A stretch of DNA of 20,000 bases from Bilabrum cf. latius (taxonomy: Eukaryota), in NCBI GenBank assembly GCA_965178125.1, contig OZ237775.1, positions 555,984-575,983 of the forward strand, written 5' to 3'. This document shows positions 1 through 20,000 of this stretch, piece by piece (within the stretch, counting starts at the first letter, position 1; the number at the start of each line of letters is the position of its first letter). The translations under genes and the position numbers were made by a program. The notes beneath the pieces are model-generated. The model was given only the letters and a program-made list of their open reading frames with translations. It did not search any database and was not told where the DNA came from.

Positions 1-1672
1 GCCACCCCGAAGGCTGGGTGCGTCTCCTCAACGGCCCTCAGGAAGTCTGAGTGCGTCAGCTTGATGTCCTTCCTGTCGATGGCCTTGCTCAGGTCACTCG
101 GGTCGATCACCCTGGCCATCGCGAAGGAGCGCGCATTGCGCACCACCCTGGAGAGCTCTGCCCCGGTGAAGTTCTTGGACCTCTTGGCCACCTCGAGCAG
201 GTCTACACCCTCCCCCAGGAAGCCCTCCTTCTGGAGCTTGGACGTGTGGATGCCCAGGATCTGCTCGCGGCCGTGCTCTGAGGGAAGACCGATCTCGACG
301 TGCACCTCCAGCCGGCCGGGCCGCAGCAGGGCATCGTCGATCATGTCCTTCCGGTTAGTCATTCCGATGAGCAGCACGTTGTTGAGTGAGTCCACGCCGT
401 CGATCTTGGACAGCAGCTGGTTCACGATGGAGTCGTGCACGCCGGTGCCTCCCCCCACGGACCCCCTCTTCCTGCAGATGGCGTCCAGCTCATCCATGAT
501 GATGATGTGCAGCCCGCTCTCGTCTCCCTTCTCGGCCTGCTCCTTCTCGGCGTCCTCGAATAGCTCCCTGATCTTCTTCTCGCTCTCGCCCACGTACTTG
601 TCCAGAATGCTCGGGCCTTGCACCACCTTCGGCTCGGCGGCGTTCAGCGCCTTGCCGATCTGACGAGCGATGAGCGTCTTGCCGCAGCCTGGCGGCCCGA
701 ACAGCAACATGCCCCTCACGTGGTTGAGGCCCATGGCGTCGATCAGAGAGGGGGGCAGCAGCCTCGAGGCGAAGGCCTGTCTGAAGATGAGCTTGAACTC
801 CTCGTCCAGCCCGCCCACCCCGAGAGCCTGGAAGTTGAAGCCCTTCCCGAAGATCTGCTGCCGCTGGTTGGACGCGCTGCCCTTGAGCTTGAACTGCGCG
901 TCTTGCCCCTTGCGGACGGTCACCTCGGTGCTAGAGAGCACCTAGGCTAGGTGGCCCCCACCCGAAGAGCCCTCCTTGGCCGTACCAGCTGCCTCACGGG
1001 GAGTTACCACGTCGAACTCGCGCACCGTGAACTTGAGTGGGACATCCACCGTGGCTGCACCGCCGCTAGCCGCCGCGCCAGCCCCAGATCCGTCCGAGCT
1101 GGGGTCGTGCTTGAATTTCACTGCCCCTGCCTATCCTACTTTAAACACGTGGCCAGCGAAGTTTCTCTTGATTGTGTCTCCGATTTTCCCTGCATTTAAC
1201 GTGTACGAGCCGTACGATCCTTTCCCGACCTGCTGAACCTCCACCACGATTCTGGTAGCAAGGAATGGCGTGTCTGGACGCGCAACGAACCGAGATACCG
1301 GCACCGGCTGATTGAGGCGAAAGTTGCCTGCTAGTCTATGCAGCTAACCCATGCCAATGCCACTCATGGAAGTTCCAGGATGTGGACTGCGAAATGTCGT
1401 AGCACATTCCAGAAAAGTACAAATACTCTTGGATGCGCACTAATTCGACACGGATGCCGGTGCAAGAGTGATATAGACAATCAATATGAATCAAATTCTT
1501 ACATCACGCGTAAAGCAAGGTCGCCCACTTGGCAGAGCAGTCCCGCTTGCTTCGCTTTCTCTGCAGCCAGGTCGCCGCCTGCCAACTCCTCAAACGACTC
1601 CTGGGAGACTGAAGCAACATCCATCCACGCTAATGTTGAAACATCAGGAATTTTTTCTGATACGAGCTCCAT
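1..1672 (-). CDS. NSF: Vesicle-fusing ATPase NSF/Sec18 (N domain + D1 AAA+ domain), 3' end beyond window start; exons 1672-1503 and 1386-<1
   Basis: Hand translation gives [25 protein letters not shown], Walker [25 protein letters not shown], Walker [34 protein letters not shown] and [35 protein letters not shown]...TTTCGCAG intron at 1502-1387 keeps frame. Three in-frame TAG (942-944, 1131-1133, 1344-1346). Start codon is tentative. Confidence 0.95.
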
Positions 1673-2069
1673 CTTTACAGGAAAAATCCCCTCGAAGACA
1701 GTTAAATGCGGGACCTCCAGAACTGCAGCAAGCAATAATGTGTTTTGTCTTCATCTTGATGCCGTGCATTTCGGTTGCAACCGCAGTTCAGACTTGTCCA
1801 GAATTTGCAGGCCCTGTACAAGTGCGTCATACTATACAACGTTCGTGTGATGTAGCACATGTAGCGCTGGCATGTATTTATGGTTGAATGTACTGAGAGC
1901 TTGAACATGGAATCTGGTGTGGGGGCCGAGGCAAGGACATCACACGACAAGTGCGCAATCGCCCAGAGGTGCCGTCACGGCAAGGTAACCAGGCAATCGT
2001 CCCAGGCCGCCAAGCGCCTCGCTTGTCACTCCAGCCCCCGCTATGGCCCCACCCTGCCTGCCAGCGTCC

Positions 2070-3313
<1,244 letters not shown>

Positions 3314-3910
3314 CTAGCCGCAATGGCTACTCCCCAACATAGACCGAGCGCGGGCCGGAAGTTCGCAACTTGAATTTCTTGATAGCAAGCACCACTGGCA
3401 GTGCTGGTACACAGTAGGGGGATGGACAGCTGGGTGAGCTGGTGTAGCGGCTGATGGACCTCGTGGCATAGGTGCAGCCCAACTTGCAGCAATTGTCCCT
3501 AACGAACGGCACATGTGGGGTATTGATTGCTTCAAGGTGTTAACACTGTTAAGACGATCGGATCACGGCAAACCCTCGGACTCCAAGTGCCAGGCAGCCG
3601 CCTCGACAGCAGGCCTGGCTGCGTCCGCGTGAAGAATGTTGTGCGTTATCCCCCACCGCGTGTACACACCGTGCTTGTTCTTGAAATCAGACTCTTTCAA
3701 AGAAACTGAATCCAACAAAGGTGTGAAACGTCGCACCACTGCTCCGTTACTGTATTGCTCCCGCGGCCATCACATGAATGCGGGCGCATGAATAAATAAT
3801 GTTTTAGCCGTTCAGGCCGACACTTGATGCATCTCACCCAGCATGCTGATGCACTGATACCGGAACTCACGTGCTTATCCCAAACCGGTAAATAAACCGA
3901 CAGCACCAGA

Positions 3911-5614
3911 ATGCAGCACAATCGCGCACGGAAGGGCAATTGTGACCCCCAGGCTTGGTCTGATTACGCTCAAATCGTAAATAGTTCTCCCATGTCAGCT
4001 CACCAAGAGAATCAAGGTGCTGGAAAGCCCGGTAGGGTTTCCAGCAGTTCTGCAATGGTTTCGATTCCGCCACCTACTAGCAGGGCTGGATCTATTGGCA
4101 TAGCACTTCCCCTTAATACGGGGGGTGCAATGATACCAATGGTGCAAGCTACAGGCGGCGTGCGGCAATCGTAGCAGCACCAATAGCAGCAACAAGGGTT
4201 CGTTTGGCACGGCTCCATGCAACCACAGTCCTACCCAGCCGTGTATTCGGTATAGCCATTCCAGCGCGGTCCTTCAGTAGAGTTCAACTAGTCTGACTCG
4301 CGAATTGGCGTGACCAGCCAGACCCAGAGACCCCAGGGCGTCGCAGCGGCAGCGGCTGCTGCTGCAGCGGCAGCTTCACGGCGCTCTTAGGGCTCCGCGC
4401 CCCCTCCATCTTCAGCTCCCATATCTTCCGAGACCGGATCATCTGCATTAATTCAATCTGGGGAGTGGCTAGGCCCGCCGGCCAACTCGCAGCGCGTTCG
4501 GCCGACTGCAACCACGATGGCGCCCAATAAGGCCCGCAGCCGTTCGAAAGGACCTGGCCGCCGTGCTGTCTCGCCCGGGATTGCGCCATTGCGCCAACGT
4601 GTCAACTTTGTCGCTAGTGATGCCACCGGTTCAGCTAGCGCGGCTGTAGAGGCTGCGGCAGGGCAGGCCAGGCAGATGGCGATCCAAGCCCGCAGGTCGG
4701 GGCAGGGGAGCCACGCCCTGCAAGCGCGCCAGGCAGCAGCGGCCCGGGCGGTGGAGGAGGCCGCCGCAAGCGGGGGCATGCATGCCCACAGGCAGCTAGG
4801 CGCCGCCCCGCGTGCGCCAGGCACGGGGGCAGGGAACAGCGGCAGCTCGCCCAGCAAGGTGGCGCAGGCAGCCGCCGCCGCCGCTGCTGCAGCCGCGCTG
4901 GCCAGCGGCAAGCAGCGAGGTGCCAAGGTTGATTCAATCGGGGCTTCTTCTAGCGATAGTCGGGCTGTCATGCTCGCGGCTGACGCTGCAGGAGGCTCGT
5001 CTCCATCCTTTGGCTTCGCTGTCAAGAAGAGCTCCAAGCGGCAGGGGCCGCGCATTCGCGGTCAGTACCAGCGGGCATGCACGTACTGCCAATCCCAGCG
5101 AAAGAAGTGTGACGGATAGCGCCCATGCGCTCGCTGTGTGCAGAGAGGTCCCCTTGCGGCCGCGCAGTGCAGGGACGGGCTGGACCTACGGCGGGGAGAA
5201 GGGCAGGCGAGGGCGAGGGGGCTGCTGCAGCCAGGAAGGGGCAGGGGCAGGGGCCGCGGCAGGGGAAGAGGTAGGGGCAAGCCCGCGACCGAAGGCGATG
5301 GAATGGACAGCTCGGGCGGGCGGGGCCGCAGGCGAGGTGGGCGTGGCAACAACAATAACAGCAGGCCGGCGGCACAGGCACACGACCCGCTGGCCGAGCT
5401 GGGCAGGAGGCAGGAGGCAGCCGAGACGCTAGCCACCGCGGTTGGGCAGGGCTTTCCCACGAGCATGGGCCAGTCTGCAGCTGCGGCTAGTGCTGCCAGC
5501 AAAGCCAAGGCTGCTGCAACCGCAGCAGCCGCTGCTGCGGCAGCGGGAGCCCAGTCACGTGGCGCCTCCCGCCCCATGAACAACGGAGCAAAGCGCCGGA
5601 GAGTTGGCCACTGA
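3911..5614 (+). CDS. Zn2Cys6 (GAL4-type zinc binuclear cluster) transcription factor-like protein, ~567 aa with TAG=Gln; Q/A-rich low-complexity regions and a GR-repeat
   Basis: ORF-track pieces 3911-4174, 4517-5119 and 5138-5614 are one frame separated only by TAG (4172, 4184, 4253, 4289, 4388, 5117). The motif CTYC-QSQRKK-C-DG[TAG]RP-C-AR-C-VQRGPLAAAQ-C spans the TAG at 5117. Ends in TGA. Confidence 0.85.
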
Positions 5615-5780
5615 TGTCGTGCTTTCTCGTGCGTTGCACTGCTCAGCAGAAATCAATTTGCTGTGGACTAGTAGCGATTCAGGATGATGCGTCTGGCAGC
5701 GGTGCTCATCTCTAATTGAGACTGCCCCGAAGGCCGCGCTTCAATCATTCAATACCGAGCTTAAGACATACAACTGCGCT

Positions 5781-8210
5781 TCATCTTGCCCCTGCCCTCT
5801 CTTTCAGGGCCGTTTCTGCCTCCATAGCTTCTTTATCCACCTCTTCCCAACGCTTCCTGCGCTCTTCTCGCCTGGCCTTTTCTTCAATCTCGTCGCGTTC
5901 AGCTTGCGCTTTCGCCTCTGCGAATGCCTTCGGGGCCACACTCTCGTAGTGCTACAAGCAGCTCTGGGCTAGTGAAGCCACGGTCGGGGACCAGTGCCCG
6001 CTGGCAGCTCTTGTGAGCGGCGGCAAAAGGGCTGGAAGGAGTACTGGCAAGAACGACACTGACAAGCAGCCGTTCAGCAAAGCATCGTTGTTCCATAGGA
6101 ACAGTGATCTCTCTGCAATCGCAAATGAAGGAGACCCGACGCAGCGACCAAGCAGCCGAAAGAGGGGCTTCGCGACCGGAGCCAGCTAGTCTGATGGCGT
6201 AACCTCGAGCAGCTCTTCCAGGCAATTGAGCATCAAGACTGCGGTGAATATCAGCAAACAACGGCTCGGTTACCATCGTATGAAGGCGCCTACATACAAG
6301 TAGCCTAGGCAAGGCATGCAACCCGGGCACATGCTCACCTTGCTTCTAGGAGTTGGACCAGGGCCAAACTTTGCAAATGCCCAGCAGGATGGCCGATGCC
6401 AACGCGGCGTCCTTGGCGATAAACTGGCAAAGGCAGTACGACAGTTGCTGCTGGTAGAGAGACAGCCACCTCGGTCGAAAGAGCGGCAGCAGCACACGCT
6501 CCAGAAATAGCCTGTGCTCGTCCTGCGCCGAGAGAGAGTCTCGAGTGGGGTGCCAGTGGGCGCATTTGGATCGCTGCAGGGAGAGAGCAAGCAGGGCATG
6601 CAAGCGAGTCAGGTCATGCGTCTCCCTCACAGCCAGAGGCAGGGAGAACCCGCTGACGATAGCCCCGTACACCTCGAGCAGCTCGGCCACTCCCAGGTGC
6701 CGGCCCGACTCGAACACGAAGCCGAAAAGGGTGTTGGCCATGGCCCGCCGGATGAAAGGCCGGTGTGACATGAGCTTCCCGTAGGCTCGGTGCAGGCACG
6801 TCTTCACGTAGTCCCTCTCGCGGGGGTCCTCCGTGTCGAATCGCTCGCTGCATGTGGCAGGATGGGCATCGGACGAGACTAGGCAGGATGGGGGCACTGT
6901 GGGGAGAGGACCGGGCGGGGCATTCCGCGAGCCTATACTCACATGAGTCTCATGAGGAATTTCTAGTCGATCGCCCCCTGTCTCTTCACATCCTTGGCCT
7001 TGGTTGCGGAAGACACGATGAAACGGAGGAGGTACTCGTACACCACAGTCAGGTGCGGCCAGGCGGGCTCGAGACACGGCTCGTCCTCCTCGGGGTCGTA
7101 CTCGTCAGAGGTGGGGGGCGTGTCTCGGAAGAGGTTGGCGGCCAGCATCTGGCAGATAGCCTTCTGGTACTTGGACCCGAAGAACCGCTTGCCCTCCTCT
7201 GTGGCGGAGAAGTCCACCAGCTCGAGCAAAGTCCGCTTCTTCTCGTCCTTGCCGCGCTCCTGGGCCTCCAGCCACCGCCTGTCCTCCGGACTTGCCAGCG
7301 AGCCCAGGTCTGATTCCCAGTCGAACATGACGCAGCAGAGCCTCAGCTTATCCAGGAAGAGCTGGTCGCGACTGCGGCTGTCCGTCACATCGCGCAGCAT
7401 CGGCAACCGCCGGAGAGATCCCGCGCCGCCAGAGACACCGACTGCGCGACTGCTCCGACTACTGCTCGGATCACCTGCCCTAGCTGCGCCGACAGCTGAT
7501 GGGCCGTGTGCCTCCCCATCGACGTCTCGACTGCTTGAGCTGCGCCTTCCTAGCCCACCGGTGGACCGCCCTGTCCCAGCGTCACCCCCTAGCGTTCGTG
7601 AGCTTGATGTAGTTGCTGGCCCAATAGTATTGGACCGCAATGACGCCCCTGTTGGAGGCCCTTTGGAGCCTCGACTGCGGTCGACGGATAACCGGTTCGT
7701 GTGCAGGCAGAAAACGAATACCGGGTGTCCCAGTTTAGGGCTTAACCAGAGCCTTTAGCAAAGCATGAGACACTTCAAAAGATAAATTTTCCACTGTAAC
7801 AAATCTCGATTCTAGCGAGATCCGCGATGCAAGCTAAATGATCGAGCAACTCAGGAAAGAGCAACTTGAAGGGTGTTGGCAAGGTGAAAATCGCATCGAG
7901 CCCAAATTTGATGCTTGGTTCAACAAAGTTTCAAACTATCTCACCGCTGTCGGGATCGTTTTCTGGCAGGCAGAGCGAGATCTGAGGATGGGGTTTGTTC
8001 TACACCAGCCGCGGCAGCATGATCTGCCTTCTGAGGGCCGGAGTGAGTCTTAAGCTCTTGTCCTGACCCTGATAATACACTTTTAGAAGACATACTGCGT
8101 GTTGAACTATTATTTTCTCTATATACAGCTGGTACCCCGCCTCTTCGCTTGTCGTCGTGTTCGCCGTGTGAACTGTCAGGATCCTTTCGCAGGCTAGCCG
8201 TACCAGACAT
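5781..8210 (-). CDS. PPP2R5: Protein phosphatase 2A regulatory subunit B'/B56 family, ~618 aa; exons 8210-7945 (tentative), 7674-6943, 6847-6631, 6522-6339, 6238-5781
   Basis: B56 motifs LFLDKLRLCCVMFDW, EYDPEEDEPCLEPAWPHLTVVYEYLLRF, ID[TAG]KFL, FDTEDPRERDYVKTCLHRAYGK, GVAELLEVYG, WPWSNS[TAG]KQV, IAERSLFLWNND and GHWSPTV. GT-AG introns with consistent phases. In-frame TAG at 6963, 6346, 6186, 5952; TGA stop at 5781-5783. The first exon is inferred from phase compatibility only. Confidence 0.92.
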
Positions 8211-8786: not shown

Positions 8787-9390
8787 GAGCACCCCAGCAC
8801 CCGATCCTGCCGCGAGATCTGGCAGTCCATGTGCCACGCGCTCCACTACTCCACCCAGCACCCCAGCACCCCAGCACCCCAGCACCCGATCCTGCCGCGA
8901 GATCTGGCAGTCCATGTGCCGCGCGCTCCACCTGTCCACCCAGCACCCCAGCACCCCAGCACCCGATTCTGCCGCGAGATCTGGCAGTCCATGTGCCGCG
9001 CGCTCCACCTGTCTACCTAGCACCCCAGCACCCCAGCACCCCAGCACCCCAGCACCCCAGCACCCGATCCTGCCGCGAGATCTGGCAGTCCATGTGCTGC
9101 GCGCTCCACCTGTCCACCCAGCACCCCAGCACCCCAGCACCCGATCCTGCCGCGAGATCTGGCAGTCCATGTGCCGCGCGCTCCACCTGTCCACCCAGCA
9201 CCCCAGCACCCCAGCACCCGATCCTGCGGCGAGATCTGGCAGTCCATGTGCTGCGCGCTCCACCTGTCTACCTAGCACCCCAGCACCCCAGCACCCCAGC
9301 ACCCCAGCACCCGATCCTGCCGCGAGATCTGGCAGTCCATGTGCCGCACGCTCCACCTGTCTACCCAGCACCCCAGCACCCCAGCACCCG
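8787..9390. repeat. Subtelomeric nested satellite: 7 copies of a ~55-bp core separated by variable numbers of the octamer CCCCAGCA
   Basis: Core CCGATCCTGCCGCGAGATCTGGCAGTCCATGTGCCGCGCGCTCCACCTGTCCA recurs with periods of about 85, 77, 101, 77, 77 and 93 bp, i.e. differences in multiples of 8. It directly abuts the telomeric array. Confidence 0.95.
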
Positions 9391-9391
9391 A

Positions 9392-11016
9392 CTAGGCTTA
9401 GGGGTTTAGGTTTAGGGTTAGGGTTAGGGTTAGGGTTAGGGTTAGGGTTAGGGTTAGGGTTAGGGTTAGGGTTAGGGTTAGGGTTAGGGTTAGGGTTAGG
9501 GTTAGGGTTAGGGTTAGGGTTAGGGTTAGGGTTAGGGTTAGGGTTAGGGTTAGGGTTAGGGTTAGGGTTAGGGTTAGGGTTAGGGTTAGGGTTAGGGTTA
9601 GGGTTAGGGTTAGGGTTAGGGTTAGGGTTAGGGTTAGGGTTAGGGTTAGGGTTAGGGTTAGGGTTAGGGTTAGGGTTAGGGTTAGGGTTAGGGTTAGGGT
9701 TAGGGTTAGGGTTAGGGTTAGGGTTAGGGTTAGGGTTAGGGTTAGGGTTAGGGTTAGGGTTAGGGTTAGGGTTAGGGTTAGGGTTAGGGTTAGGGTTAGG
9801 GTTAGGGTTAGGGTTAGGGTTAGGGTTAGGGTTAGGGTTAGGGTTAGGGTTAGGGTTAGGGTTAGGGTTAGGGTTAGGGTTAGGGTTAGGGTTAGGGTTA
9901 GGGTTAGGGTTAGGGTTAGGGTTAGGGTTAGGGTTAGGGTTAGGGTTAGGGTTAGGGTTAGGGTTAGGGTTAGGGTTAGGGTTAGGGTTAGGGTTAGGGT
10001 TAGGGTTAGGGTTAGGGTTAGGGTTAGGGTTAGGGTTAGGGTTAGGGTTAGGGTTAGGGTTAGGGTTAGGGTTAGGGTTAGGGTTAGGGTTAGGGTTAGG
10101 GTTAGGGTTAGGGTTAGGGTTAGGGTTAGGGTTAGGGTTAGGGTTAGGGTTAGGGTTAGGGTTAGGGTTAGGGTTAGGGTTAGGGTTAGGGTTAGGGTTA
10201 GGGTTAGGGTTAGGGTTAGGGTTAGGGTTAGGGTTAGGGTTAGGGTTAGGGTTAGGGTTAGGGTTAGGGTTAGGGTTAGGGTTAGGGTTAGGGTTAGGGT
10301 TAGGGTTAGGGTTAGGGTTAGGGTTAGGGTTAGGGTTAGGGTTAGGGTTAGGGTTAGGGTTAGGGTTAGGGTTAGGGTTAGGGTTAGGGTTAGGGTTAGG
10401 GTTAGGGTTAGGGTTAGGGTTAGGGTTAGGGTTAGGGTTAGGGTTAGGGTTAGGGTTAGGGTTAGGGTTAGGGTTAGGGTTAGGGTTAGGGTTAGGGTTA
10501 GGGTTAGGGTTAGGGTTAGGGTTAGGGTTAGGGTTAGGGTTAGGGTTAGGGTTAGGGTTAGGGTTAGGGTTAGGGTTAGGGTTAGGGTTAGGGTTAGGGT
10601 TAGGGTTAGGGTTAGGGTTAGGGTTAGGGTTAGGGTTAGGGTTAGGGTTAGGGTTAGGGTTAGGGTTAGGGTTAGGGTTAGGGTTAGGGTTAGGGTTAGG
10701 GTTAGGGTTAGGGTTAGGGTTAGGGTTAGGGTTAGGGTTAGGGTTAGGGTTAGGGTTAGGGTTAGGGTTAGGGTTAGGGTTAGGGTTAGGGTTAGGGTTA
10801 GGGTTAGGGTTAGGGTTAGGGTTAGGGTTAGGGTTAGGGTTAGGGTTAGGGTTAGGGTTAGGGTTAGGGTTAGGGTTAGGGTTAGGGTTAGGGTTAGGGT
10901 TAGGGTTAGGGTTAGGGTTAGGGTTAGGGTTAGGGTTAGGGTTAGGGTTAGGGTTAGGGTTAGGGTTAGGGTTAGGGTTAGGGTTAGGGTTAGGGTTAGG
11001 GTTAGGGTTAGGGTTA
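9392..11016 (+). repeat. Telomeric repeat array (TTAGGG)n, about 267 perfect units, with degenerate units at the proximal edge
   Basis: Variants CTAGGC, TTAGGGG and TTTAGG at 9392-9411, then uninterrupted TTAGGG from 9412, ending GGGTTA at 11016. The G-rich strand runs 5'->3' away from the host genes. Confidence 0.99.
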
Positions 11017-11049
11017 CAGTACCATCCTAGGCCAGGCCCGGGCGCCGCG

Positions 11050-11087
11050 AAAGTATCATGTTCCGCAAAAAGTATCATGTTCCGCAA
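11050..11087 (+). repeat. Perfect 19-bp tandem direct repeat (AAAGTATCATGTTCCGCAA x2) 33 bp from the telomere junction
   Basis: Seen directly at 11050-11068 and 11069-11087. Confidence 0.9.
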
Positions 11088-11188
11088 AGACGGTGTTGCC
11101 GCGCAGTGTCCAAGTGGTCGCAAGATCGCACTGAGGCAGATCTGGGCCAGTTGCAGATATGCAAGCAGTCGACAAGAGGTGCAAGTGA

Positions 11189-11728
11189 TTAGCAATGCAT
11201 ATTTGGTGTATGATTATGCTTGTCTGCTTGGTTTACAATGAATCTCGGCCTCGGTCTCCTCGGTGGTGCTGCCCGTGGGTGACGAGCACCCAGGGGGCTG
11301 CACGGGATGGACGCCCACCCGGCGAGTCTGGACCAAACCGCGTCGTGCAAATTGGGTTTGCCAAGGAGGTGTGCCCTGCTGTGTTTCGCCCGCGAGAATA
11401 GGGGGTTGTCTCCCCGTCGGGCAGGTGCTCCATCCAGCTCGCCCGTCCGTGACTGAGACAGCACGGGCCGCGACAAGTGCGCGAGCCCGGGGATCAAGTC
11501 AGCGGCCGATGGCAGCGAGCCGGCATGAAGCGCGTGCACGAGGAGCTTGCGCTTCCCATGCACTGCCTGCCCCACCTCATTGCGGATCTGGGACATCAGG
11601 TTCATCGTGTTGCCACACACACCTCCACACTCGACGATCGGATCTACAGAGACACCTGTCCCGGGATGCTGCTCCTCGTCATTGGCCTGCTCCTTCTCGC
11701 CCCGGGGGCACGCGCTGCCTCGAAGCAC
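11189..11728 (-). CDS. Possible hypothetical protein or terminal exon (179 codons, TAA stop)
   Basis: Open frame across a GC-rich block. No recognisable motif and no ATG at the frame start. Confidence 0.2.
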   Translation of the reverse strand: MLRGSACPRGEKEQANDEEQHPGTGVSVDPIVECGGVCGNTMNLMSQIRNEVGQAVHGKRKLLVHALHAGSLPSAADLIPGLAHLSRPVLSQSRTGELDGAPARRGDNPLFSRAKHSRAHLLGKPNLHDAVWSRLAGWASIPCSPLGARHPRAAPPRRPRPRFIVNQADKHNHTPNMHC

Positions 11729-12582
11729 GCACCCGCGCTCCCGCCCGACTCAAGGACTGATTGCTGGGAGGGTGCGCGGGCAGCCGCGTGAGAGGATGAC
11801 GGGCGTGCCGCCGAAGGCCGAGTCCAGGAGCTGGGGACGGGACGCATCGTTGGGACTGCCCTGAGGAGACCAAAGAATCAACCGCCATCCGTACGGATCC
11901 CTATACGGTTGGCCGGTCTGACTCTCTGCTCGCCCACCGCACAGATCTGCTCAGTTCCATGCAATGTTTGCCAGAAGCGGCGAGAGGGTCTCATCAGCAC
12001 AGGTGGGTCCTAAAGGCTGCCTGCAATGCATAGAAAAAGAATATATCGATTGAAACTAATTAATAGCCCCTCGATGCATGGCAACATACCCGAGTGCTGC
12101 CATGAAAACCGGACAACGCACAAGCACGTTAGCAGACCAGCGATGATCCCATACAGATGCCAGAACCTAACAGAAACACCAACAATCAATTTGAATGAAT
12201 ACAATAGAATCAAAATACCTGGCGGTTGTTGTACTCGGGCTATGCGGTACCTAGCTGTTCTGTCTGCAAACGCCATGGCGCGCCCCAATGAGGCGAGACC
12301 AAAAGCAGACCCACAGCAGCATGTCACCTTGAACATACAACGACATATGGCAGTAAGTGGTAATTAACATGAATCCCAACAGGCCTCAGTACAGTTGAGC
12401 CGGTATGTGGCGCTGAGAGGTGTGGTTGCGCCAGAATCCGCAAACGGTCGTGAACAGCGGAACCAGCATGCGCGGCGCCGAGGACGTCCAGCAGGGCAAG
12501 CCTGTAGCAGGGTGTGCACCGGTTCACGGTACCGATGCTTGGATGTTTGTGGGCTAGGAATCTGTTTTGTAATACACATGAT

Positions 12583-12600
12583 AGGGTTAGCCCTAACCCT
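12583..12600. repeat. Head-to-head telomeric palindrome AGGGTTAG-CC-CTAACCCT
   Basis: 8-bp perfect inverted repeat made of telomeric sequence, about 260 bp downstream of the giant gene's stop codon. Confidence 0.75.
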
Positions 12601-12862
12601 TCAGAATCGGATGCATGGTTCATTTACTTCCATGAGAAGGGCTGACGTCCTGCATGCACTACATTAGCCCAAATACAACACACGCACATGTCGTCTTGAA
12701 ACAGTGCACCTCTTTATATTACAGTGGATATAACTCATGGCGAGAGAGGCTTGTCTGTCTGCAGTGCTGCAATGCAGCTCTTCACTGCTGCACATGCAGC
12801 TCGAGGTTCTGCAAGTTATCTGTTCTGCATAGAAAATCACAGAACATGACACCTCACTGGCC

Positions 12863-15800
12863 TCATGTCCATTTCTCGTCAAACCCCCAGCCTTCTTGCT
12901 CAATTGCTGGGATGTGTACCCACCGTGGAGCGGTGCCAAGAAGAAGGATCTCGATTTCGCCACGTGCCCGTGAAATATCTCGCTGGCCCATACCACGCAA
13001 TCCAGCGCCGGGCACTGATGGCGCCATGTTCTGGTCACCACGAATTCCTCTAGGTCGTGACAGTGCTGAAGTCGGCGGCTGCGTGATGGCGCTGGAGGCT
13101 GCTCCCAGCGGCGGCTGCAACTCGGCAAGGCCGTCACTACCAGCCTTGTCGGTAGGCATCTGCAGCAATCGACCGATTGGATCATCATCGCTGCCAGCCC
13201 CACTGGATGCTGATTCCGAGGCAGGCCTCAATGGTTCCGATGCCCTGCTGCCGATCGCAGTTCGGTTGAATGCGTTGGCCTCCGTTCGTTCTGCGGGACT
13301 CGAGCTCGCATGCTCGCCGGATTGCCGCATGTGCCTTGATCGCTTCTATTGCCCTTCTTCCTCATCGCTCTCATGGCCGGGCCAAATATGTCCCAACGAA
13401 TCTAGGCTATGCTCAAGAGCAGAAGTAGTGGTGGATGCCTGTGACAGGATGCTGTCGCCATCGTCAAGAGGACGAGCACGTGTGTACATCCGAAGAACCT
13501 AGCTGCAGTGTTGCGATTGAGGTATGTGATACGCACGCCAAAGCTCGTGCCTCTGGTCGGCACTCACGCCTGCTTCTCCTGCTTCTGCACGTGCTCGGGC
13601 CACCATGGATCGGACATCTCCCACAGCTTTCAAGCTTTGAGCTAGTGACCTGCGTACCAGCCCCTTGCCTGCTGCCTTGTAGTACGGGGCTTCTGATAGT
13701 GCAGGCACTACTGATGGACTACAGGGCAGGTTAATGCAGAGACCAGCGCCGTAGTAGCCTACATCGATGACACGACGCAGTGACCCATCCTACCTGTTCA
13801 GCGCCCCTCTGAAGACTTGAGGACAATCAAAGCCTGGGTTCATCCACTTGAAATGATCTAGCACGACAGACTCCACGTGCTGGGCAATGGTAACGGCAGG
13901 CTGGGCGGTTCTTGGTGGTGGCGAGACGTCGAGCACTGTCTAAAGTCCAGATCGTGCAATCGACGGCTGGCCTCCCCTTGGTCGCTTCGTTCCAGGCAGA
14001 GGGGGCCGCTGCAACCGATCGGGCAGCAATACTGCAGACCCAATCACACACGCAGGTAAAAGCCACACTGATACCATACGACGAAACTGCTCGTCTGCGA
14101 GGGATGGCTGTCCGTTCTGCCTGGTGCCTACGACAGCACGAAGAATTGAAGCGACGTACGAGGTCCGGACAGATGACTCGGCAGCAAGCTTGCGTTGCAT
14201 GGTCCAGGATAACGATGTTATCAACGCATAGCCTAGCTTGGAGGCCCTAGCAGATGTCGTGGTCGCCAAGTCACCCCTGAGATTCCCAGCGTTCTTAGAG
14301 CCGCGCCACATTGCGCCTGCATCTGGCCTGGGACTGAAGGCAATCTTGGATATGCACATCTGCAAGCCAACTAGTATTGCACTCCTTGAGCACCTGAGCC
14401 GAGATAGGAGCAGCCCGTACAGTGCTACAGCTAGGCTGCCCCTTGCTAGCATTCCTTTCCGTGTGCCACTGCGAAGGTGGAGCTTTGCCAGGTGCATTTG
14501 CGCAAGGTAAAGCTTCCGTAGCTGCTGCTCCATGACTACAGCGTGGGACATGTCTGTAGACTTGGCAAAGTGCAACAATAGCCTGGACCGCTCAGGCAGT
14601 CGAGACAAAATGTCAGCCTGCACGTCAGCCCGTACCATAGCACGAAAGCCGGTGATTCCGTTGTTCACACCGCTGATGCCCAACTGGAAGTGCTCGTCAC
14701 CTTGCGTTGATACGAGTCCAGAAAGACCATACCTCTCGGAGATCCGAGAGATCTGCCATGTCATGCCCAAGCCTTCTGCCAACGCACACAGGCTCCAAGA
14801 CGTTACCATGACCTCACAGACGGCAAGCACAGTCCACGAGTTCAAGAACGTACCGTTGCACCCCCCAGCCCTGACTGACTACACCGCATTTCCGATTTGA
14901 TCAATGATGGCGGATGCAACCGCCATTACATTAGACTGCTCAGGCATACTGCTAGCAGATTGCAAACAGTCACGGACGCTGGACCACTCCAGTGTCGAAG
15001 GCCCTAAGTTTCGAAGAACTGGCCTAGTAGCGGGAAGCCACGTTACGGCAATTTGCTCTGCAACAACCTGAGACCATGCATCTGTCCGTAGAGCCACGCA
15101 GCCTTCCATACAGCATCTGCTCATCGATGCAGCTAGCGCCCACATCGCCGATCGCTGATACGTGGGAATCCTGTCTGCACCACAGACAGCTGCTACGAGC
15201 AGTCTTTCGATTCTGCAAAGTGCCCGACGGAGTGTATACCTGAGCATTTCCAAGTGATTCATGATGGATGTCTTCTTCACGACCTCCACGAAGCATTGCG
15301 AGAATGGAGCCACTGACAAATGCTCGATAGTGTCGGCGCGATGTTCACTCCGTAACTGTCCGTACTGCAGTTCAGCTGGTAGCACTACGGAGGCCAGCAT
15401 CAGACTCATGGTTGACGCGGGTACATCGAACTCGCCCCTGGTCGATCCAAGGATTCCTGCAGTTAGCCTTGCATAGCTTTGAGTGAATGCCGTTTGCAGC
15501 CCAAGGTATATCCGCCGGCGGGTTGGCAGTGCATCCAGAGCTGCCTAGGCTCGAATCATGCTTGCAGTTCTCGAACTCAAAGTCGATGGAGCATGTGCAT
15601 CCGATTCAGCGAAGTGGCGAACCTTAGAGAGAACTCGTCGGCGAAACTGGTCATATGCAGAGTCGTGCGCCCCTGGACTAGGCTGAAATGCTCGGAATGC
15701 TCCAGGCTGGTACAAATGCAGCTGAGATGACAGCATGCAGCCAAGTGACATAAATGAAGGCATGCCGTAGTCGTTGCCAGTGTCATTCTCGGCTAAAACA

Positions 15801-18800
15801 CGTCGGTGCACGGAAAGCACGTCACCCCAGGATAGCGTAGCTGGAAGCATTCCTTGGAAGGTTCCGGCGTACTCTCCAACGGACGCCAGCGCCGCATATG
15901 GACGAATTCGCTCTTGCATCACGGCATACCGTGCGTGTTCGAGCCGTGTTCCGTGTATGACTCCTCGCAGCAACTGATCCCGACAGCTATGCATGTACTG
16001 AACTGTTGCTGGGTTTGGTACAGCAACTGACACTGAGCGTTCACCACACACCTCAAAGCCTACGCCAAAACTGCAGTACATGGCCATATCCGCATCCTGT
16101 TGCGGCCACAGCTGTCCGTACGGATGAATTATGGCTGCGAGATCTCTCATACCTCGGCGTTGATGACGTCCAGTCCAAGCAGGTGCTCGCGCCGCGCCGC
16201 GGTACAGCTGTTCCCGAGCACTGCGTGTCAGTGTTTTCCTGCTCACCTTCCTGTTTGTAGCGCCTGACGCCGATCGCTTGCCATCTCCTGTTGGACCAAA
16301 CCATTCACCTCTGCGGCCTCTGGCAAACTCCTCATCGCTCTCATCCATTGCGATCTCCCGAGCACGTTCTTCTTCTGCCTGCTGGGCAGCCAAGTCTTCA
16401 TGAGCTTTGCGAAGCTGTCCCTGTGCTGCCTGTTGCAAGAGAGACATAGGATTGCATGCTTTGCAGCCCACTCGCTAGGCGTAGAACACGGAGCACCTGG
16501 CTATCTGTCTCATCAGCAGTATCATGAGGAAGCAGTTGTAGTGTGATACTAAGTGCAGATGATCAAGTAAAGAGTCGTGACTCAAAGACCACTCGTAGGA
16601 GCTGCTGTGCTATGCTTCATCATTCTCCACGCCACGTTGCTTAGCGAAGTCGTCGTCCTCATCCACGTCCACGTCGGTGTCGTCTGAATCGCTCTGCGCA
16701 GCAGCACCACCGCTTATTCCCACGCCTTCATTCTGCTGAGCCTCGTCAGAATCAGAGTCAGAGTCACTCAACTAGTCAACGGCTGGGTAGCCAAGCCACC
16801 GTACCCAATGAAATGCGCACGAAAGCAACCGGGATGGGCTTCTGTGCAGGGTGTGAGAGCCAGGCCAGAATCTACTTGTCTGTGGACCAGGTCCACTCCC
16901 AGCGTGTGCGAGCGACGAATGGTATCCACCGGCTTGGCCTCCACCACGTTGGACACGTACCACTAGCTCTGGACCTAGCCAGTCGAGCCTGCTGGCAGCA
17001 GCCGTGAGCCCGCAGCCGAAGACGTACAGCACACAGCTTCGGATCACATCCACATGGGAGCCCTGGGTCCAGAAGCCTTCATGCATACTCATTTCTACAA
17101 CACCCTCAGTATCAAGCGTTTGCTGCAAGGACTGAGACGGAGGTTCGAACGAGTCTATCAGGTCACGGCAAAGATCAAGCAATCCACTAGGTACAAGAAT
17201 AGATACCGTAGCAGCACCAACATCGAAAAGTTGAACGTGGATGTCAGCAGCGAGTCCGCGCAGTATACGAAGCGTTGGCAATTTCGACGATTGATCGTTT
17301 GCGTTTTCTGCTTGCGTGCTGACAGCCCTACTCCACAAGGTTCCAGAATGCGGCACCACTGAAGCCCACCCTTCCCTTGCAGCCTTGTCGACATCACGAT
17401 GGAACTATCGGGTGCACTCCTACTCAATTAGTTTGCTATACTTGGTAACATCAGACAAGGCCCCGGCAGCCAACACCCGGATGCTTGAGCCACCAAGTCC
17501 ATTCGGACACTTCTGCTGCAGATCGGTCACCTTGGATCGTAAGCTATCAATCTGCTCTTGGTCGCAACGACGCTCAGCCCACAGCATCGCAGTTTGCTAG
17601 TCTTTGAAAACGTCATCCCCGTCATCAAGGAATGCTGTCCATGATATGCGCATTGATCCGCCGGCAGGCGGCCGCTGTGCGTGCGGGGCGCGAACTACCA
17701 CGCCAGTTGAGGGTGATTGAGACAAGCTGGTATACGACGGAAGCAGCGAATCTGAGTCATGTACACCTAGAACGCCATCTGTGATCCAGTCCAGCAGTGC
17801 ATGGTCCGATCCATCAAGCCCCAGTGGGCTTGCCAACGTGTGAGGCAGAAAGTGGTTCGAAGTCTCGTCTGCACTGGATCCATTGAGGTCTGCGACAGCT
17901 CCAAGAACAGTGAACCCATCTAAATCAAATGCAGAATCGCTGTGACAAGACAGCGGTACGTTTCTGGAACCTGGTGCAGACTTGAACGCTCTATATATCG
18001 CAGGCTGGTCCGGAATTGTGCTGTCCATTGATCTTCGCGGAGAGGCCGAGCTTGACAGGCCTCGGCTTGCACTCGGAGTGACGGGCTAGCTGGATGTTCG
18101 ACTCTCTTTGACAGCGACTTTCTTCCTTGCTGCGGCACGAGATCCTTGCCTTCGGACGGCGGGCAATGGAGCGAACCCAAGGCACATGCCTGCCAAGAAG
18201 TCCAGGGGGGATGACAGGTGCTGTAGAGGTCCAGACTCCGTTTCTGGTTGGGACATCTGATCGAGCGAGCTGCCAGTGGCCTAGCTGGCACCACGAGAAC
18301 TACTGCTGTGGCTGCTTGCGGCGCCTGACGACTGTCGACGGCGGCTTGGCGAGCTGCCAGTGGCCTAGCTGGCACCACGAGAACTACTGCTGTGGCTGCT
18401 TGCGGCGCCTGACGACTGTCGACGGCGGCTTGGCGAGCTGCCAGTGGCCTAGCTGGCACCACGAGAACTACTGCTGTGGCTGCTTGCGGCGCCTGACGAC
18501 TGTCGACGGCGGCTTGGCGAGCTGCCAGTGGCCTAGCTGGCACCACGAGAACTACTGCTGGGGCTGCTTGCGGCGCCTGACGACTGTCGACGGCGGCTTG
18601 GCGAGCTGCCAGTGGCCTAGCTGGCACCACGAGAACTACTGCTGGGGCTGCTTGCGGCGCCTGACGACTGTCGACGGCGGCTTGGCGAGCTGCCAGTGGC
18701 CTAGCTGGCACCACGAGAACTACTGCTGTGGCTGCTTGCGGCGCCTGACGACTGTCGACGGCGGCTTGGCGAGCTGCCAGTGGCCTAGCTGGCACCACGA

Positions 18801-19541
18801 GAACTACTGCTGGGGCTGCTTGCGCCTCGTGACGATCGTGCACGAGTAGCCGTTTCAGGAAGTTCGAATCCCCGCATCTCACTGTGTGCTCCTGACATCT
18901 CTGCTCGGGCAGCGAGAGCAGCTTGGGCAGGCAGATATCCAGTTGGCGCGTACTAGCAGCAATCAACCAGCGATACGTATGTATGCAGATCTGACTCCTT
19001 AATCAAGTCGTCAATTAATTGTTTGTGAAATATTTCTGCATCAGCGCTGGGTGTATCGTAGACCGTGAGAAGATCGGCCAGCATGCCATTTTCGATGACA
19101 TCGCTTGAGACTCCAAGTTCTCGAAGGCACTCCTAAATCTCTTCGACTTCGATGCCATCCATCTGCGATATAATAAACTGAAGTTCAATATACTGCGGTT
19201 GCTGCTGAGATGTACTCCTATTATCCCAACTGTAGCTCTGGCTTACTTCAGCTGGCGGATTCGGCTGCTGGGGATCGAAAGTGCGGATCATCTCTAATTT
19301 CTCTTCGGATATCTGCGTAACAATGCAACATAAGTATGTATTGAGCTGTCTGCGGCGGATAGCAAATCAATACTGCCCATATACTCCACATAGAACTCAC
19401 TGGAACGTGCTACCAAAACAGAGCTCGACGATTCATTGCTCGCTGCAATCTTTTGAGTACTTTGTGCATAGATTGCATCTAGCGTGTATCATCTAAGACT
19501 TTACATGCATCGTCAATGGAACACAAGGTTTCGTCAGACAT
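12863..19541 (-). CDS. Giant hypothetical protein, ~2,196 aa with TAG=Gln; exons 19541-19401 and 19312-12863
   Basis: ORF-track pieces 17597-18028, 16772-17359, 15545-16471, 14879-15409, 13940-14845, 13499-13708 and 12863-13330 share one frame. Hand translation of every gap found only TAG stops, with no TAA or TGA from 19366 to the TGA at 12863-12865. A phase-0 intron GTGAGT...TTACGCAG (19400-19313) joins a 47-codon exon starting MSDETLCSIDDACK. Confidence 0.88.
18265..18824. repeat. 84-bp coding tandem repeat, 6 full copies plus a partial, inside the giant gene (28-aa unit QATGSSPSRRRQSSGAASS[H/P]SSSSRGAS)
   Basis: Units start at 18265, 18349, 18433, 18517, 18601, 18685 and 18769. The full copies differ at only one T/G site. 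Each unit has one in-frame TAG. Confidence 0.95.
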
Positions 19542-19752
19542 CTTTAGGCCGGTTCTGGCGCAAGCAATACTCAACGGAATATTGTGCGCGTCCCCCTCGT
19601 GGGGGGCGAGTGCCACCAGTGGGGGGTGCGTGCGGCGCCGCGCTCGACGGCGGAACACAGTATCTCAAACTGCAAGTGGTCTCGAACATCAAGATTTTTT
19701 TGTTTGCTTGCTGGCATTTTGTTTCTCTTCTGCCAGGCAGTGTGAAAAATAT
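19542..19752. promoter_or_regulatory. Putative bidirectional promoter between divergent genes
   Basis: 211-bp gap between ATG 19541(-) and ATG 19753(+). It has a GC-rich core with two GTGGGGGG boxes and a CCCCC-TCGT-GGGGG hairpin. Confidence 0.4.
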
Positions 19753-20000
19753 ATGTCAGACCATGCATCACCGTGGGCATTGCTTGGATTGAAGCCTGTA
19801 GACTTCGCAACGGAAAATCTCGCAATCCGCCGAGGCTTGTGTATCGCAGCTTGCGGCATATCGGTTGAAACCGTGCGGTGCATCTTTTAGGATGGTGCCT
19901 ATGTATCTGCGCGATAGCGTACATCACTTCATAGTGTAATGCAGCGTATTTGTGCGACAGATGACGGCAAAGTGCTGCGTGTCGACCCAAGCTTCTTGCT
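19753..20000 (+). CDS. 5' part of a hypothetical protein, open to the window end with TAG=Gln
   Basis: MSDHASPWALLGLKPVDFATENLAIRRGLCIAACGISVETVRCIF[TAG]DGAYVSAR[TAG]RTSLHSVMQRICATDDGKVLRVDPSFL. TAG at 19888 and 19915; A-rich context before the ATG. Confidence 0.5.

Follow-up and report, generated by a model that had tools for sequence, protein, structure and literature searches.

A 20,000-nt stretch of the Bilabrum cf. latius genome (assembly GCA_965178125.1, contig OZ237775.1, forward-strand positions 555,984 to 575,983; hereafter the window, numbered from its first letter) carries a gene for a very large protein that can be read through only when the stop codon TAG is translated as glutamine. 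The favoured reading, to which we give a probability of about 70%, is that of an ordinary nuclear gene of a eukaryote with a UAG=Gln code, whose product, about 2,150-2,200 residues long, is a member of a small family restricted to one clade and not detectably related to described domains. The open frame, its selection, its conservation and the glutamine reading of TAG are shown by comparisons at several loci; the fold class, localisation and function of the protein are put forward more tentatively, by inference.

With standard stop codons (table 11) the reverse strand of 12863..19291 is broken up: its open reading frames (ORFs) range from 155 to 348 aa, and six reach 150 aa or more. Once TAG is taken as a residue these merge into a single ORF of 2142 aa covering the whole interval, as the original prediction had anticipated for a TAG=Gln translation. 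The 2143-codon frame holds 22 TAG, no TAA and one TGA, which is the terminator, whereas the remaining five frames over the same interval hold 3-10 TAA, 21-27 TAG and 30-66 TGA. TAA and TGA are therefore excluded from the frame, and TAG is not depleted in it. An 84-nt tandem repeat accounts for seven of the 22 TAG codons, as copies of one another, so that 16 are independent. About 40 TGA would be expected, and none is seen internally at two independent loci, the window and the metagenomic contig L001 described below. Contigs of four sequencing runs (X1, X5, X6 and X7; kind unrecorded) run straight along the stretch with no joints.

The other genes of the window, which are eukaryotic, carry in-frame TAG codons as well, namely NSF/Sec18 (4), a Zn2Cys6 protein (6) and PP2A-B56 (1). 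An alignment of 104 of the 120 listed NSF matches (those of at least 430 aa) places the TAG at codon 118 (context FKVG-TAG-AGAVKF) in a column that is Gln in 47 of the 56 rows having a residue there. The use of TAG as a sense codon is a property of the organism and not of the large gene alone. TAG accounts for 17-28% of the Gln codons across the two orthologues. TGA closes each of the five ORFs that were checked (window ends 5614, 6768, 5899 and 12863; L001 7379) and TAA none, and TGA may be the main or only terminator in the host lineage. TAA is never in frame, and no ORF supported by homology becomes longer when TAA too is read as Gln (table 6). Searches of the 20-kb window gave no tRNA gene and no Rfam match. 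The NSF column in particular leaves the UAG=Gln reading, proposed from the outset, well supported.

Relatives of the protein exist, and the public gene calls for them are all fragments. When residues 880-1900 were searched against 1.84 billion representative proteins, ten matches came back: nine fragments 43-220 aa long (57-88% identity) and one of 364 aa at 35%; the N-terminal half gave three more fragment matches. None of these relatives has a name or a Pfam domain, and no near-length homologue of residues 560-2000 was found among 7998 scored candidates. An orthologue is present on L001, a JGI metagenome contig of 8118 nt, as a single TAG=Gln ORF (1719..7379, 1886 codons). It repeats the stop pattern of the window gene, with 24 TAG, no TAA and a terminal TGA only, its other frames holding 26-65 TGA. 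BLASTP aligns the two proteins in two blocks that lie in collinear order: a C-terminal block of 850 aa at 29% identity (E 4e-77; window residues 924-1756) and an N-terminal block of 457 aa at 26% (E 2e-24; window residues 446-853). Upstream of the orthologue, L001 has a 336-aa ORF (241..1251, reverse strand; 4 TAG, no Pfam match) that has no relation to the upstream neighbour of the window gene, so synteny is not conserved.

The places where the fragments stop are informative about the code as well as about the gene. When 17 fragments from closer relatives are projected onto the window protein, six end exactly at a window TAG, at five distinct codons (624, 840, 939, 1249 and 1834), chance being about 1% per fragment; a seventh ends at a Gln encoded by CAR. 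Ends at window TAG sites imply that the relatives keep TAG at those positions and that standard-code gene calling cut the genes there. It had been predicted that standard-code annotation would miss this gene, and this is what has happened to its relatives. At closer range, six sites of the ORF differ in a near-identical strain (run X5). Five of them fall at third codon positions; four of the changes are synonymous, and the other two replace a residue (L->Q and E->D). The proposal that a frame free of TAA and TGA implies selection thus gains support from the orthologue, from its stop pattern and from the strain differences, and together these sequence comparisons show that the frame is translated and that purifying selection acts on it in three or four lineages at the least.

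Upstream of the main ORF the sequence suggests a short first exon. If that exon is real, the coding exon extends seven in-frame codons 5' of the ATG at 19291, up to 19312, where the putative exon 1 joins the main frame in phase (donor GTGAGT at 19400, acceptor GCAG ending at 19313). The geometry, with a short first exon and an intron at 19400-19313 as originally described, holds as a matter of sequence; splicing itself is putative. With exon 1 the product would have about 2,196 residues, which puts the overall length at roughly 2,150-2,200. The PP2A-B56 gene contains a 108-nt insert (6523..6630, reverse strand; GTGAGG...GCGCAG), in frame and stop-free, at a point where residues 210 and 211 of human B56 are contiguous. 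This insert is likely an intron hidden inside the ORF and, as such, an in-window precedent for the 88-nt intron of the large gene.

The protein has the architecture that had been described for it, each part in the place given. The N-terminal region is acidic (net charge of residues 1-100, -14) and is followed by a 28-aa Ser/Arg repeat, a tract rich in Asp and Glu, about 900 aa of mixed hydrophobic-rich sequence C-terminal to that tract, and a low-complexity tail (Table 1). Copies of the repeat are 98% alike at the 84-nt level and the L001 orthologue has no such repeat, so the expansion is recent. The Trp-containing C-terminal end resembles that of the orthologue, as judged by eye. Hydropathy profiles gave no conserved set of membrane helices and no conserved run of transmembrane grade beyond one buried-type helix. 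Basic clusters are present in both proteins, KRPR and KRSR in the window and KRRRR in the orthologue, and the ordered parts are flanked by such clusters and by long Ser/Arg and acidic tracts. SR/RS-domain RNA-processing proteins combine an RS tract with an RNA-recognition domain or another domain of RNA processing; the window protein has a Ser/Arg repeat, but Pfam finds no RRM or RNA-related domain in it, and the repeat is missing from the orthologue.

Table 1. Features of the window, with strand where one applies
Feature	Position	Strand	Remarks
Putative first exon	19401..19541	-	47 codons incl. 2 TAG; ATG 19541; from sequence reading
Putative intron	19313..19400	-	88 nt, GTGAGT...GCAG; from sequence reading and frame check
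Main coding exon	12863..19312	-	ATG 19291, TGA 12865..12863; collinear with L001 orthologue
Tandem repeat, Ser/Arg-rich	18265..18835	-	84 nt/28 aa, 6.8 copies, unit SSRGASQATGSSPSRRRQSSGAASSHSS, one TAG per unit
Best-conserved N-terminal block	16901..17243	-	About residues 683-797, IHVQLFDVGAATVSILVPSGLLD...; modelled small alpha/beta domain, pLDDT 51-80
Asp/Glu/Ser-rich acidic linker	16621..16771	-	Residues 841-891
Conserved C-terminal region	14024..16522	-	Residues 924-1756; 29% identical to L001 orthologue; predicted all-alpha, low confidence
Low-complexity tail	12866..13591	-	About residues 1901-2142; KRSR, acidic patches, Trp-containing short C-terminal end
(TTAGGG)270 array	9393..11016		Near-perfect, 1.6 kb; G-rich strand 5'->3' towards the gene
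Satellite	8788..9391		77-255-nt periods, rich in CCCAGCAC; left of the array only, unique sequence to the right
PP2A-B56	5899..7077	-	1 TAG
Zn2Cys6 protein	3911..5614	+	567 aa, 6 TAG; Zn2Cys6 binuclear-cluster domain E 8e-6; long Ala/Gly/Arg low-complexity tracts
NSF/Sec18	3..1484	-	Runs past the window edge; 4 TAG in ORF

The protein could not be assigned to a family. Pfam returned no family at E <= 0.1 for the window protein and nothing consistent at E <= 10 for 17 aligned members, PHROGs returned none, and of 31 pattern matches in viral contigs none was confirmed. No reverse transcriptase, DDE transposase, recombinase, helicase or capsid domain is detectable by Pfam, including the 17 members, or by PHROGs, in line with what had been noted by eye. 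Profile searches of the Protein Data Bank (PDB) gave no match at E <= 10 with one alignment (A4) and a single match at E 1.7, dismissed, with the other (A5). The AlphaFold2 model of residues 440-860 includes, over the best-conserved block, a beta-hairpin/helix/strand alpha/beta unit within which residues ~704-800 reach pLDDT 51-80. The suggested profile, AlphaFold and Foldseek searches thus gave poor models and named no family.

Could the protein nevertheless be a known one in disguise? On this account it would be a very diverged member of a large helical-repeat family (nuclear-pore, TOR-complex, cohesin-loader or Rif1-type scaffolds), a membership that sequence methods would miss because the lineage is poorly sampled. 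The C-terminal half is predicted to be all-helical, and the L001 orthologue has a weak RICTOR_N match, whose E values of 0.074 and 0.029 fall well short of the cut-off. The Atlas feature neighbours of one orthologue fragment (P0010) are mostly clusters of HEAT/TPR/ARM type, all sub-threshold (scores <=0.80, TM <=0.41), the named ones being LINES_N, TPR_SYO1, Nup192/RICTOR_M, HEATR5A and DOP1 at 0.75-0.80. However, shuffled proteins reach a first-hit score >=0.8 in the same Atlas one third of the time, the window protein itself has no Pfam match of this kind, and the PDB profile searches were blank but for the match already mentioned. Alpha-solenoid scaffolds built of HEAT, ARM or TPR repeats (Rictor, Nup192, HEATR5, Dopey) share with the window protein its size, the predicted all-helical C-terminal half and the flanking disordered charged tracts, which makes for a working resemblance only; unlike them, neither orthologue meets a family threshold or has a solved-structure relative by sequence or by fold (the fold search having used the 440-860 model). 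Descent from one of these families is an unlikely explanation, if one with some substance.

Under the favoured reading of a clade-restricted family, a possible working model can still be drawn. From N to C terminus the protein would comprise an acidic N-terminus, the Ser/Arg repeat, an alpha/beta domain of about 120 aa, the acidic linker, a helical region of about 850 aa and a charged low-complexity tail with basic clusters. The recently expanded 28-aa repeat would be disordered and phosphorylatable, and the conserved all-helical region, going by its predicted secondary structure, might form an alpha-solenoid. The helical body could then bind partner proteins, with phosphorylation of the Ser/Arg and acidic tracts tuning these contacts. 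Such a protein would be a helical scaffold, soluble and probably nuclear, whose disordered tracts are regulatory; this is the likeliest mode of action we can offer, but we put it forward tentatively and think it less likely than not.

The surroundings of the gene raise a different question. Telomere-associated elements include telomeric retrotransposons and subtelomeric helicase genes, and the original prediction saw in the large gene the possible core of an undescribed mobile element of this kind. The gene lies 1.85 kb from the (TTAGGG)270 array. Between 11300 and 12300 the runs yield variant contigs that differ at 5-11 positions per 100-120 nt, with a loose end at 11309, a pattern that suggests sequence repeated elsewhere in the genome. 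There is also an 18-nt perfect palindrome, AGGGTTAGCCCTAACCCT, composed of the telomere-like half-sites AGGGTTAG and CCCTAACCCT, at 12583..12600, 263 nt 3' of the stop codon; dinucleotide-preserving shuffles expect no such match. A 179-aa ORF (11189..11728, reverse strand) between the array and the gene has no Pfam match.

Proximity to the array is, however, all that the gene shares with telomere-associated elements. It lacks a reverse transcriptase, Gag-like or helicase domain, and endonuclease, transposase and capsid domains are likewise missing by Pfam and PHROGs. It also has no terminal direct or inverted repeats: in 11017..20000 the repeats comprise only the 84-nt array inside the gene and a single chance pair of 21 nt, and no inverted pair. 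The 8.1-kb contig of the orthologue contains no TTAGGG dimer, no relative was confirmed in viral contigs, and the scan of representative proteins gave orthologue-like fragments only. With its G-rich strand pointing to the gene and a subtelomere-type satellite on the far side alone, the array has the look of a terminus of the left-hand segment and not of part of a unit that includes the large gene. Where it meets the right-hand 9 kb, the array may be truly interstitial or the two segments may have been joined in assembly, and the closeness of gene and array is best read as coincidence or as a product of assembly. The mobile-element proposal is thus not supported, and we regard it as very improbable.

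The remaining doubts concern the code and the frame. TAG might stand for another residue (Glu, Leu, Ser or Tyr, as in other lineages) or be a stop read through at low efficiency, and some columns could be taken that way: two close-relative fragment ends (P0008 and P0014) lie opposite Glu in the window, the TAG at NSF codon 181 falls in a mixed column (I 39, Q 12, L 10, M 8, V 6), and the single B56 TAG is opposite Pro in human B56-gamma. The B56 site is variable, though, and the nearest relatives have Q at NSF codon 181. Against another residue stand the Gln column at NSF codon 118 and the well-aligned columns of the two orthologues, where TAG is opposite Q, Q, Q, S, H and A, that is, Q in three of six and never consistently Glu, Leu, Ser-only or Tyr. 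Readthrough is at odds with a TAG count that matches the other frames and, because each gene has 22-24 TAG, would leave essentially no full-length product at low efficiency. Either version is highly unlikely. A chance open frame or decayed pseudogene, for which the nearly even GC content across codon positions (0.60, 0.54, 0.54) might speak, is already contradicted by the missing TGA codons at two loci, by protein conservation reaching E 4e-77 and by five of six strain differences falling at third codon positions.

Several points nevertheless weigh against the clade-restricted scaffold as drawn above. The AlphaFold2 models are poor, with mean pLDDT of 29.7 for residues 924-1790 (12 rows; an all-helical model) and 36.5 for residues 440-860 (5 rows), and Foldseek against the PDB with the latter returned no match at E <= 0.001. 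Because of these poor models, the helical-repeat idea draws on secondary structure and sub-threshold leads. The basic clusters, and only they, point to the nucleus. In-frame stop-free introns like that of the B56 gene may be present inside the long exon, as they may in other long ORFs of the window. Finally, neither the 1.6-kb TTAGGG array at 1.85 kb nor the telomere-like 18-nt palindrome in the 3' flank is explained by an ordinary nuclear gene.

What kind of organism uses this code? The best NSF matches are 55-68% identical and come from mixed eukaryotes. A tree of 24 rows (the window, 16 organism-labelled matches and the 7 top other matches, of the 120 listed; no Rhizaria or Haptista rows) places the window in a group with 98/94 support that contains Phaeodactylum, Chrysoparadoxa and unlabelled rows; fungi, animals, plants and Perkinsus fall outside it. 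This single gene hints at a host near the stramenopiles. The Zn2Cys6 cluster is a fungal-type DNA-binding domain, yet the NSF of the host does not fall among fungi.

Codes in which only UAG is reassigned to Gln, equivalent to NCBI table 15, are reported for Iotanema spirale, Protocruzia tuzeti and some phyllopharyngean ciliates, and codes in which both UAR codons are Gln (table 6) for Amoeboaphelidium protococcarum, hexamitid diplomonads, oxymonads and ulvophytes (PMC5304391, PMC11687900). The window resembles the table 15 lineages in having TAG at a conserved Gln of a housekeeping gene, in the TAG share of Gln codons given above and in the lack of in-frame TAA. In contrast to the table 15 ciliates, its host has TTAGGG repeats, 48-64% GC, putative spliceosomal introns and an NSF among stramenopile rows. 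UAA is unreassigned in table 15 codes; in the window and L001 TAA is never in frame, nor does it end any of the five ORFs checked. With Amoeboaphelidium protococcarum and the other UAR=Gln lineages the host shares a stop-to-Gln change outside the ciliates, and the window has a Zn2Cys6 gene nearby; unlike theirs, its genes lack in-frame TAA, and its NSF branches away from fungi. Among the papers listed in a literature search, none showed a stramenopile or similar case. The code of the host may already be known to its sequencers.

The large protein represents a conserved, very large and unclassified family, although for a protist with such poor sampling this alone is nothing exceptional. The gene is a clean worked example of how the reassignment of a stop codon hides genes. 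Its public relatives are all known just from fragments, 43-364 residues long, and many such genes would be recovered if the organism and its relatives in metagenomes were re-annotated with TAG=Gln. A more speculative possibility, which we think doubtful as a whole, is that the host belongs to an undescribed UAG-to-Gln lineage beyond ciliates and metamonads, and that the protein founds a clade-specific family shredded by standard-code callers in every public assembly. A bolder addition still would have the family act at the ends of chromosomes; the TTAGGG array next to the gene and the palindrome in the 3' flank would then be accounted for. The most valuable by-product of the analysis is the evidence for UAG=Gln in a host that is not obviously a ciliate or a metamonad. 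If it is true that this host lies outside the known UAG-only lineages, it would be an independent case of the uncoupling of UAG from UAA, a rare event.

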